This document shows, piece by piece, positions 12,771 to 14,106 of a stretch of DNA of 64,000 nucleotides. Every line of letters begins with the position of its first letter. Position 1 is the stretch's first letter. Source of the DNA: an uncultured Bacilli bacterium (GTDB taxonomy: Bacteria; Bacillota_I; Bacilli_A; RF39; UBA660). A program made the position numbers and the translations under genes. The stretch spans positions 1 to 64,000 of the forward strand of contig CANQQV010000009.1 in assembly GCA_947626095.1 (NCBI GenBank). Direction: 5' to 3'. Below the pieces are notes generated by a model. That model was given only the letters and a program-made list of their open reading frames with translations. It did not search any database and was not told the origin of the DNA.

Positions 12771-12815
12771 AAATTATTTATGTTAATAGTATTAATTAAA
12801 AAGAAAACCACCTAA
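12771..12815 (+). pseudogene. 3' remnant of type I toxin peptide gene
   Basis: Reads KLFMLIVLIKKKTT*; same position relative to the sRNA terminator as the toxin C-terminus (..IVMIVVIKK*) at 36930. Confidence 0.5.
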
Positions 12816-12908
12816 CTCAACAATGATTTAGGTGGTACCCATTTTATGGCAACACTCAACACTGCATTATTGAATGTTCCTTTTTTAGTTTACGCAAGTT
12901 CCCTTGCT
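12798..12908 (-). ncRNA. putative type I antitoxin-like sRNA (orphan copy 1)
   Basis: Promoter TTGTTA-17-(TG)TATGAT at 12915-12943; 5' GCAAG-GGAA-CTTGC hairpin; terminator ACCACCTAA/TTAGGTGGT+U; homologous to 36921-37037 and 38288-38375. Confidence 0.7.
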
Positions 12909-12953
12909 ATATTCATCATATCATAAAAGAGATTTTTTAACAAGTTATACAGA

Positions 12954-13910
12954 TTAAGCCAAATTAGCTTTTAGTTCTTTTAAATAGCTTTTATATTCTA
13001 AGAATTCTTTCTCTTCATTAATAGATAAAATATATAATACTTTACCATATAAAGTATTAAGATACTTAGTTGGTTCTTCTTGATAACCTATTTTATTTAA
13101 ATGATTTAATAAACCATATTTTTTGATGTAATAGATTTCTTGTCTTACTTTATCACGGTATTTAGCTGATACTCTTACCTTCTCATTAACAACTAAACCA
13201 GTTACTTTTTGACATTGATGATTATAAATAACTTTAATTTTTTTATTATTTATTTTTAAATTTAATTTATATAACATTTTACGAACTTTACTTATAACTT
13301 CATGAGGATTAAAATCACCAGAGAATGTCATATCATCAGAATATCTAGTATAAGCAATATTATTTTGTTCACACCATGAACCTAATTCTTCATCAAAGTC
13401 TTTCATAACTAAATTAGAAATATAAGCCGAAGTTGGAGCGCCTTGGGGAAGACGAGATTCATAAGTACATAAATAAGTTAATAAGTGACCGATAGGTTTA
13501 GGAAAATAAATTTCGGGAAAACAAGTTTGATAGATATCATAGAAATTAATATTTTCAAAAAAATCGATGATATCTAATTTTAAGATTACTTTTTGATTAG
13601 TATGAGGGAAAGCATTATCTTTTAAAGAAATATTTTGGTGATAAGCTTTAGCATACTTAGATATTTGTTTATTATTTAAGATGTTATGTAAGATATTCTT
13701 TTGCATGTGTTTTAATATTGGTTTAGGACTATAAATAGTACGATAAGAACCATTATATTTTTTTATTTTAAATAGTTGATAATTACTTTCTACTCGATTA
13801 CTTATAGCATAAATAGTTTTGAGTTTAGCATTATCAGACATATTATAATTTAAAAGAGAAAGAGATAACAAAAACTTATTACACTCTTCTTTAGTTAGAA
13901 TATTAAGCAT
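12954..13910 (-). CDS. retron-type reverse transcriptase
   Basis: NAxxH (NAFPH), LDIIDFF, LPQGAPTS, YSDD, VTGL; no maturase, HNH or fused effector; RBS AAAGGAGGT. Confidence 0.95.
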   Translation of the reverse strand: MLNILTKEECNKFLLSLSLLNYNMSDNAKLKTIYAISNRVESNYQLFKIKKYNGSYRTIYSPKPILKHMQKNILHNILNNKQISKYAKAYHQNISLKDNAFPHTNQKVILKLDIIDFFENINFYDIYQTCFPEIYFPKPIGHLLTYLCTYESRLPQGAPTSAYISNLVMKDFDEELGSWCEQNNIAYTRYSDDMTFSGDFNPHEVISKVRKMLYKLNLKINNKKIKVIYNHQCQKVTGLVVNEKVRVSAKYRDKVRQEIYYIKKYGLLNHLNKIGYQEEPTKYLNTLYGKVLYILSINEEKEFLEYKSYLKELKANLA

Positions 13911-13923
13911 TGTTACCTCCTTT

Positions 13924-14091
13924 AGCAGTACTTATGATATTGTAATATGGAAATGAACATAAGCGTTAGCGGTCTACATGTAATGTAGTATAGTTCTTTG
14001 GAATATTACAATTAATGATGTTATTAACTTAGAACTTTAGCGACTCGCTAAAGAATGATTTTTAAATGATTAAAAACCAACCACTACTGCT
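13924..14091 (-). ncRNA. retron ncRNA (msr-msd)
   Basis: a1/a2 inverted repeat AGCAGTA/TACTGCT with a G just inside each arm (branch G about 14084); two msr stem-loops (GGTTTTTAA/TTAAAAATC; CTTTAGCG-AGT-CGCTAAAG); msd hairpin closed by ATTGTAATAT/ATATTACAAT. Confidence 0.88.
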
Positions 14092-14097
14092 GTTTGT

Positions 14098-14106
14098 ATT
14101 ATAGCA
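14098..14106 (-). promoter_or_regulatory. extended -10 promoter of retron
   Basis: TGcTATAAT 6 nt upstream of the a1 arm; AU-rich cadA terminator hairpin just upstream (about 14130-14160). Confidence 0.65.

Follow-up and report, generated by a model that had tools for sequence, protein, structure and literature searches.

The window analysed here is a 64,000-nt stretch of DNA from an uncultured Bacilli bacterium (assembly GCA_947626095.1, contig CANQQV010000009.1), and the element in question is a retron on its minus strand. An intact gene for a retron reverse transcriptase (RT) is preceded by about 190 nt of conserved msr/msd non-coding RNA (ncRNA) and followed by an antitoxin-like small RNA (sRNA), a 387-amino-acid (aa) ORFan and a broken kinase-like gene (Table 1). 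The original prediction had placed the sRNA in the position of the missing protein effector and had proposed a retron coupled to a type I toxin-antitoxin (TA) module, with an orphan retron and chance adjacency as fallbacks. We compared the locus with the best 80 of 375 confirmed RT places on one-genome-per-species contigs, nearly all of them from metagenome-assembled genomes (MAGs) of uncultured gut Bacilli, Tenericutes and Erysipelotrichaceae. These loci carry L numbers, L001 being the window's own.

The RT matched the Pfam family RVT_1 (E = 1.5e-22), and its top PADLOC model was RT_Ec107-like (PDLC03739) with 420.3 bits and E = 1.2e-126. Since this match covers residues 9-312 of 318, the model spans the protein from end to end and leaves no fused domain. 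The second-best PADLOC model, RT_III-A, scored 346.5 bits, 74 below RT_Ec107-like, and the other retron RT types scored lower still. The NCBIfam model of the St85-family retron RT gave 206.7 bits, under its cut-off of 235. The length of the protein is kept within narrow limits, 310-324 aa among the best 120 of 5041 database relatives. We located the motifs YSDD at residues 190-193, NAFPH at 99-103 and VTG at 236-238; NAxxH and VTG are named as motifs characteristic of retron RTs in the SPIRE survey (2026, PMC13712802). When the RT was aligned with 13 relatives of 63-93% identity (alignment A1), YSDD, N99, H103, T237 and G238 were invariant, and A100 and V236 were conserved in at least 90%. The RT is present once in its own 1.62-Mb genome. 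Its distribution is patchy: of 60 other genera that were sampled in the family, 5 contained it.

The sequence 5' of the RT start is conserved as well. In a comparison of the 300 nt upstream of the start, a match to the window's upstream region was found in 76 of 76 other loci over a length of about 140-330 nt (L050 and L054 were excluded for too little sequence). An alignment of 77 distinct upstream regions (A2) had in common an extended -10 element, an a2 arm followed by a near-invariant G, a pair of msr hairpins, a long msd stem that is interrupted and encloses an inner hairpin, and the a1 arm. RNAalifold recovered the a1/a2 duplex, one msr hairpin and the inner msd hairpin from A2, with compensatory changes in 16 of 23 pairs. 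A structure of 32 pairs written by hand left 97.1% of the alignment cells paired, compared with 25-46% when the 3' partners were slid by 1-3 columns. Compensatory changes were seen in 21 of its 32 pairs, and none of 500 shuffles reached any of the observed measures. The a1/a2 duplex contributed such changes in 6 of 7 pairs (at columns 84-297, for example, UA occurs 46 times, AU 15 times and GC three times), and the msd helices, numbers 3-5 of the structure, in 10 of 17 pairs, with 92-99% of cells paired. An E-value scan of positions 11000-16000 against Rfam gave chance-level matches alone (E of at least 1.5) and named neither the ncRNA nor the sRNA. The msr/msd anatomy, including the branching G at 14084, is far beyond chance. 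The intact RT without a fused domain, the extended -10 and the full msr/msd with its a1/a2 arms and branch G, which had been read from the window by itself, are all sustained by these comparisons.

The genes around the RT showed no such conservation. We clustered all open reading frames (ORFs) of at least 60 aa from 78 RT loci and the window, leaving out L033 and L080, which hold no full RT ORF. The RT cluster comprised 80 ORFs and the next largest cluster nine; no conserved neighbour gene emerged. The genes immediately upstream and downstream of the RT were mostly singletons. The recurrent clusters were unrelated to one another: VanZ/HTH proteins, an AAA_15/AAA_21-type ATPase, a C39-peptidase ABC exporter, a class-I glutamine amidotransferase (GATase), an NAD-dependent epimerase and an HD-domain protein. 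Neither a PRTase-like gene nor any other recurrent partner was found beside the RT in the 78 loci. The tripartite retron defence systems of types I-XIII are recognised by a conserved adjacent effector or a fused effector domain, and neither was found here. Across the 78 loci and the window the RT stands instead without a specifically associated accessory gene, as is characteristic of the orphan retrons of clade 2.

For the branch of clade 2 that contains Retron-Eco5 (Ec107), Mestre et al. (2020, PMC7736814) found no specifically associated protein cluster. The members of this branch are named orphan retrons there, and effectors in trans or another function are left open. According to the SPIRE survey (PMC13712802), clade2_Ec107like is the second most abundant group, with 192 candidates that are 93% Bacillota and 91-92% host-associated. 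The commonest accessory domain or module occurs in 8 of the 192, an Ec107_like msr/msd covariance model exists, and the group is graded 'known-like, minimal expansion'. Both sources (PMC7736814, PMC13712802) give type III-A as sister to the Ec107 branch. In the phage tests of Millman et al., Ec107 was left out (bioRxiv 10.1101/2020.06.21.156273). A literature search of our own on orphan, standalone or effector-less clade 2 retrons found nothing on their function.

The window retron is like this group in its best RT model, in the ncRNA directly 5' of the RT with a1/a2 arms and branch G, in the lack of a specifically associated protein and in its origin from host-associated Bacillota. It differs from Retron-Eco5 in its host, which is not E. 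coli but an uncultured gut Bacilli MAG with a small genome, and in the unrelated sRNA element and ORFan inserted after the RT; the likeness of the RTs is one of profile scores, and the msDNA of the window retron is a predicted product. Type III-A retrons combine the RT with PRTase-like and DNA-binding effectors. Their RT model is the second best for the window RT, whereas no PRTase-like neighbour was found in the 78 loci, and the window RT scores higher with the RT_Ec107-like model by the difference given above. The fallback of an orphan, effector-less retron of the Ec107 kind is thus borne out by the RT model together with the neighbour survey, and we make the identification as an orphan retron with high confidence.

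Table 1. Features of the retron locus and copies of the sRNA family in the window and the rest of its genome
Feature	Position	Strand	Remark
Extended -10 TGcTATAAT of the ncRNA/RT transcript	14106-14098	-	TGnTATAAT in nearly all of the 77 A2 sequences
a2 arm AGCAGTA	14091-14085	-	7-bp pairing with a1
Predicted branching G	14084	-	directly 3' of a2; nearly invariant in A2
msr hairpin 1	14079-14056	-	single-sequence fold
msr hairpin 2	14053-14035	-	8 pairs, 5 compensatory; 98.9% of cells paired
msd template region	14009-13931	-	outer stems 14009-14003/13948-13942 and GAAC/GTTC
msd inner hairpin	13988-13974	-	inside the msd template region
a1 arm TACTGCT	13930-13924	-	pairs with a2
RT ribosome-binding site GGAGG	13920-13916	-	a few bases 3' of a1
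Retron RT ORF, 318 aa, intact	12954-13910	-	ORF call, Pfam RVT_1, PADLOC
sRNA's own promoter: -35 TTGTTA, 17-nt spacer, TG-extended -10 TATGAT	12943-12915	-	pattern scan; kept in the 13 full-length copies
Antitoxin-like sRNA: hairpin 1, hairpin 2, terminator hairpin with U tract	12788-12914	-	sRNA family copy; R1 match, 142.5 bits
Remnant of a convergent toxin-like peptide gene, 11-codon ORF	12780-12815	+	start resembles the family C-terminal 'LIVLI', by eye
387-aa ORFan, two central hydrophobic segments (by eye)	11589-12752	-	strain-specific insertion, not part of the retron
Kinase-like gene, cluster c3, in two fragments (219 aa and 80 aa)	10606-11504	-	one in-frame TGA; syntenic neighbour
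sRNA family copy	36912-37043		R1
sRNA family copy	38279-38398		R1
sRNA family copy	contig C14, 39660-39794		locus L083, about 1409-1647
sRNA family copy	contig C20, 23745-23871
sRNA family copy	contig C1, 83351-83474

The sRNA that follows the RT belongs to a multi-copy family. A covariance model (R1), built from an alignment of 13 full-length copies (A4), found six copies in the 1.62-Mb genome, or one per 270 kb, against the single RT. By BLAST the family was matched in 13 of 60 related genomes, with up to nine matches per genome. Each full copy specifies an RNA of about 120 nt with its own promoter, two hairpins and a terminator hairpin with a U tract. The structure of A4 kept 98.4% of cells paired, compared with 29-43% when partners were slid; compensatory change was seen in 5 of its 24 pairs. 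On the opposite strand, 8 of the 13 full copies encode a hydrophobic peptide of 25-29 aa (ATG to stop) behind a GGAGG Shine-Dalgarno (SD) sequence; these lengths are read from the ATG behind the SD, and alternative starts further upstream would give longer forms. The peptides share an N-terminal M-x-K-K-D-F/Y-L-I motif, and their genes end at the sRNA terminator. A ninth full copy has a different ORF of 48 aa. A hydrophobic ORF of 30 aa (36838-36930) is convergent to the window copy at 36912-37043, and a complete sRNA/peptide module lies in trans on contig C14. The two peptides that were tested had no Pfam match.

A convergent type I TA architecture is known in Firmicutes from par/Fst RNAI-RNAII, txpA/RatA and bsrG/SR4. 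The sRNA family resembles these systems in that a structured sRNA converges on a small hydrophobic peptide gene with a strong SD. It differs from them in that the sRNA, as far as the scanned part of the window goes, has no Rfam match, the peptides have no Pfam match, and the peptide gene is absent at the copy beside the retron. The layout of the family is that of a convergent type I TA module, and toxicity of the peptide and its repression by the RNA are predicted from it. The name antitoxin-like, given earlier to the RNA beside the retron, is therefore justified by the convergent toxin-like gene in the other family copies. Since its terminator is followed by a ribosome-binding site (RBS), the sRNA might also be a leader or attenuator acting in cis on the 387-aa gene; as the role of the family we rejected this because a convergent peptide gene follows in 8 of the 13 copies. 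A further observation concerns the copy at 38279-38398, which lacks the promoter and first hairpin and lies directly 3' of a tRNA-Leu(CAA) gene (38404-38490, minus strand). Transcription of this tRNA may end at hairpin 2 and the terminator of the copy, whose antisense frame is broken.

At the retron itself, the 171 nt 3' of the RT stop fold with z = -4.2, better than 200 of 200 shuffles. The original prediction had joined ncRNA, RT and sRNA into one transcription unit. One part of this stands, since no terminator-like site was picked up by a pattern scan from the RT stop to the sRNA hairpin, nor any before the sRNA terminator. The other part does not, since the sRNA has its own promoter that is conserved in the family. 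Read-through from the RT into the sRNA, if there is any, is therefore incidental and not a designed operon. The peptide gene of this copy is gone except for its last codons: the RBS, the start and the part coding for the transmembrane (TM) segment are missing, and the rest of the gene has been replaced by the start of the 387-aa gene. No SD-preceded convergent ORF, as a type I TA module would have, was found at the retron-side copy. In L003, the peptide-coding stretch can still be recognised by eye, without an RBS and a start codon. A 26-codon, hydrophobic-looking antisense ORF at 12846-12926 (plus strand) was examined and regarded as non-coding; neither its start nor its frame is constant among the 13 copies, several of which have stops.

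The distribution of the sRNA among the RT loci speaks to the proposal that retron and TA module are functionally coupled, with read-through, or the sRNA acting as effector, controlling a peptide toxin encoded elsewhere. The full module in trans on contig C14 would supply such a toxin, the stretch from the RT stop to the sRNA terminator is free of terminator-like sites, and the arrangement is kept in L003 (92% RT identity). However, L003 is the only locus in which the sequence 3' of the RT stop is conserved (L057 and L071 were excluded from this comparison for too little sequence), and the only one of the 80 other RT loci in which R1 places the sRNA directly after the RT on the same strand. In L002, whose RT is the closest homologue (96% identity), the sRNA is lacking entirely, and the flank of the next gene begins about 30 nt after the RT stop. 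Unrelated sequence downstream of the closest homologues was what the original prediction had itself named as refuting the coupling, and L002 shows just that.

At E of 0.001 or below, R1 matched in 5 of the 80 RT loci: L003, L072 (two copies), L075, L069 and L061. Weaker matches (E = 0.0035-0.02) were obtained in L022, L026 and L033. Apart from the window and L003, the only copies near an RT at this threshold are in L072 (2177-2657) and L075 (269-395). They lie 550-1000 nt upstream of the RT, and the coupling could draw on this vicinity of 1 kb or less and on the weak matches in L022 and L026, yet the copies in L072 and L075 are on the opposite strand and the two loci are kin. The copies in L069 and L061 are distant. 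A strongly hydrophobic small ORF behind an SD was present within 450 nt after the RT in 2 of 76 loci (L006 and L022, the latter with a hydrophobic ORF of 21 aa), against 0 of 66 control stretches. The expectation that the sRNA or a TM ORF of about 30 aa would consistently follow homologous RTs was thus disappointed, with 1 of 80 loci for the former and 2 of 76 for the latter.

Further evidence goes in the same direction. The sRNA carries its own conserved promoter, its toxin gene is destroyed at the retron copy and lacks RBS and start codon in L003, the family has six times the copy number of the RT in the genome, and genomes with both elements, such as G028, hold them on separate contigs. A search of the literature for a coupling of a retron to type I TA found no paper describing one. 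Because the sRNA follows the RT in 1 of 80 loci and is absent from L002, the coupling is not supported, and we regard it as highly improbable. Chance adjacency at a variable intergenic spot, the other fallback of the original prediction, is supported by the findings. The coupling may be put more generally, as small-genome gut Bacilli in which effector-less Ec107-like retrons are functionally wired to type I TA-like sRNA/peptide modules; in this form, too, we consider it highly improbable. If it were true, the amount of an antitoxin sRNA restraining unlinked membrane-peptide toxins would depend on read-through from the retron or on the status of the multicopy single-stranded DNA (msDNA). The 'effector' of the orphan retron would then be a peptide toxin under control at the RNA level, and the window would represent a stage at which the toxin in cis is lost and the sRNA acts in trans alone.

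The 387-aa ORF raises a different possibility, namely that the retron gained it recently as a membrane effector. The effector of type IV retrons, for instance Ec48, has two TM segments (2TM), and by analogy a membrane ORF with two hydrophobic stretches (by eye) 3' of the window RT could be a counterpart. The ORF is on the same strand and is the next gene after the RT and sRNA, starting about 50 nt beyond the sRNA terminator. It is also a rare protein with no known function: it found three cluster representatives including the window's own among 5.8 billion clusters, seven representatives among 1.84 billion clustered proteins in an exhaustive phmmer search, and nothing above 0.83 in the ESM Atlas. 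Pfam returned a sub-threshold GtrII match only, no NCBIfam family rose above threshold, and PADLOC was silent except for a weak pAgo match (E = 0.0025). In type IV a 2TM protein is conserved beside the RT; by contrast, the 387-aa ORF is a singleton among the neighbours of the 78 RT loci and occurs in none of the other RT loci. L002 and L003 are orthologous loci with intact RTs; each has 30-100 nt in place of about 1.2-1.4 kb of the window and thereby lacks the ORF. The window RT is not of type IV by hidden Markov model (HMM), and an independent promoter-terminator unit, the sRNA, stands between the ORF and the RT. We therefore hold an effector role of this ORF to be very unlikely.

The kinase-like gene c3 follows next. 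It is intact in L002, L004, L005 and L007, on the same strand and 78-116 nt after the RT stop, whereas the window and L003 hold it in broken form. According to a third explanation, c3 is or was the effector of a genus-level retron subclade and is now decaying in these two loci. The four loci with intact c3 have RTs of 65-96% identity to the window and a varying upstream gene (c2 or c22), and c3 weakly matched PD-T4-6, a model of a defence kinase (E = 0.0007-0.0076); no Pfam family was found for it. On the other hand, 16 of 60 other genera have homologues of c3, with an RT within 1.5 kb in none of 20 such loci, and G088 and G089 carry c3 and the RT on different contigs. The gene is absent from the other 72 of the 78 RT loci, and in the window and L003, where it is broken, the RT and ncRNA are intact. 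The genes 3' of c3 (c1 and c4) are syntenic too, which fits a vertically inherited insertion site. We judge this explanation very unlikely. Neither the 387-aa ORF nor c3 behaves as an effector of the retron.

Two observations on the upstream side may be added. A cluster of ATPases of about 290-300 aa (c6; AAA_15/AAA_21/ABC-type) forms the same-strand gene directly upstream of the retron in 6 of the 78 loci (L024, L028, L029, L032, L048 and L060), with the gene end 118-211 nt before the RT start. It could be an ordinary ABC ATPase or a partner specific to a subclade. In the window, the region 5' of the retron (14147-16499, minus strand) holds, as read from the translations, a 682-aa heavy-metal P-type ATPase-like ORF and a 108-aa ArsR-like ORF, both in synteny with L002-L004.

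Taken together, the locus is in all likelihood a stand-alone Ec107-like (clade 2) retron without an effector in cis, and the adjoining sRNA is a stray copy with a lost toxin that came to lie there by chance. Several points weigh against this reading. R1 gave about six matches in about 0.6 Mb of RT loci, with about two expected from the density in the window's own genome. This mild excess hints that the two elements could be co-located in variable regions; the loci are kin, and positions and strands vary. In the window's genus the RT is always followed by c3, which may be a lineage-specific partner of the retron. An effector may also be encoded in trans. The assignment of the RT to the Ec107-like part of clade 2 is a putative one made by HMM scores, which we count as a weakness, and the msDNA of the window retron is a prediction within a reading drawn from sequence.

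For the stand-alone retron we propose the following mechanism, which leans on what is established for retrons in general. The extended -10 would drive a single transcript comprising the msr/msd RNA and the RT gene. The RT would bind the msr hairpins, while the 7-bp a1/a2 duplex would present the 2'-OH of G14084 as primer. Copying of the msd template (about 13931-14009) would then yield a branched multicopy single-stranded DNA of roughly 70-90 nt. The RT and ncRNA are under purifying and compensatory selection across dozens of genera and in unrelated gene neighbourhoods; therefore the RT-msDNA complex itself is the selected product. It most likely acts with an unlinked partner or alone; it might, for instance, sense the nucleic-acid enzymes of phages or serve as a decoy for them. 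Such an effector-independent or trans-partnered sensor or decoy role is suggested with low confidence. The ancestors of this retron probably lost an effector of the PRTase type, as has been proposed for the clade. Later, one of the six sRNA/peptide elements of the genome would have landed between the RT and the next gene, and insertion of the 387-aa ORFan would have overwritten the toxin-like gene of this copy, leaving an orphan antitoxin-like sRNA.

The useful result for the proposed coupling is a negative one, since the apparent link between a retron and a type I TA system vanishes once homologous loci are compared. As a modest side lead, the analysis brought up an sRNA/peptide family with type I TA architecture in uncultured gut Bacilli. 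The function of the orphan lineage without an effector is stated as an open question by Mestre et al. (PMC7736814). To this Ec107-like lineage the window retron adds a well-supported member, together with a strongly covarying ncRNA alignment of 77 sequences.

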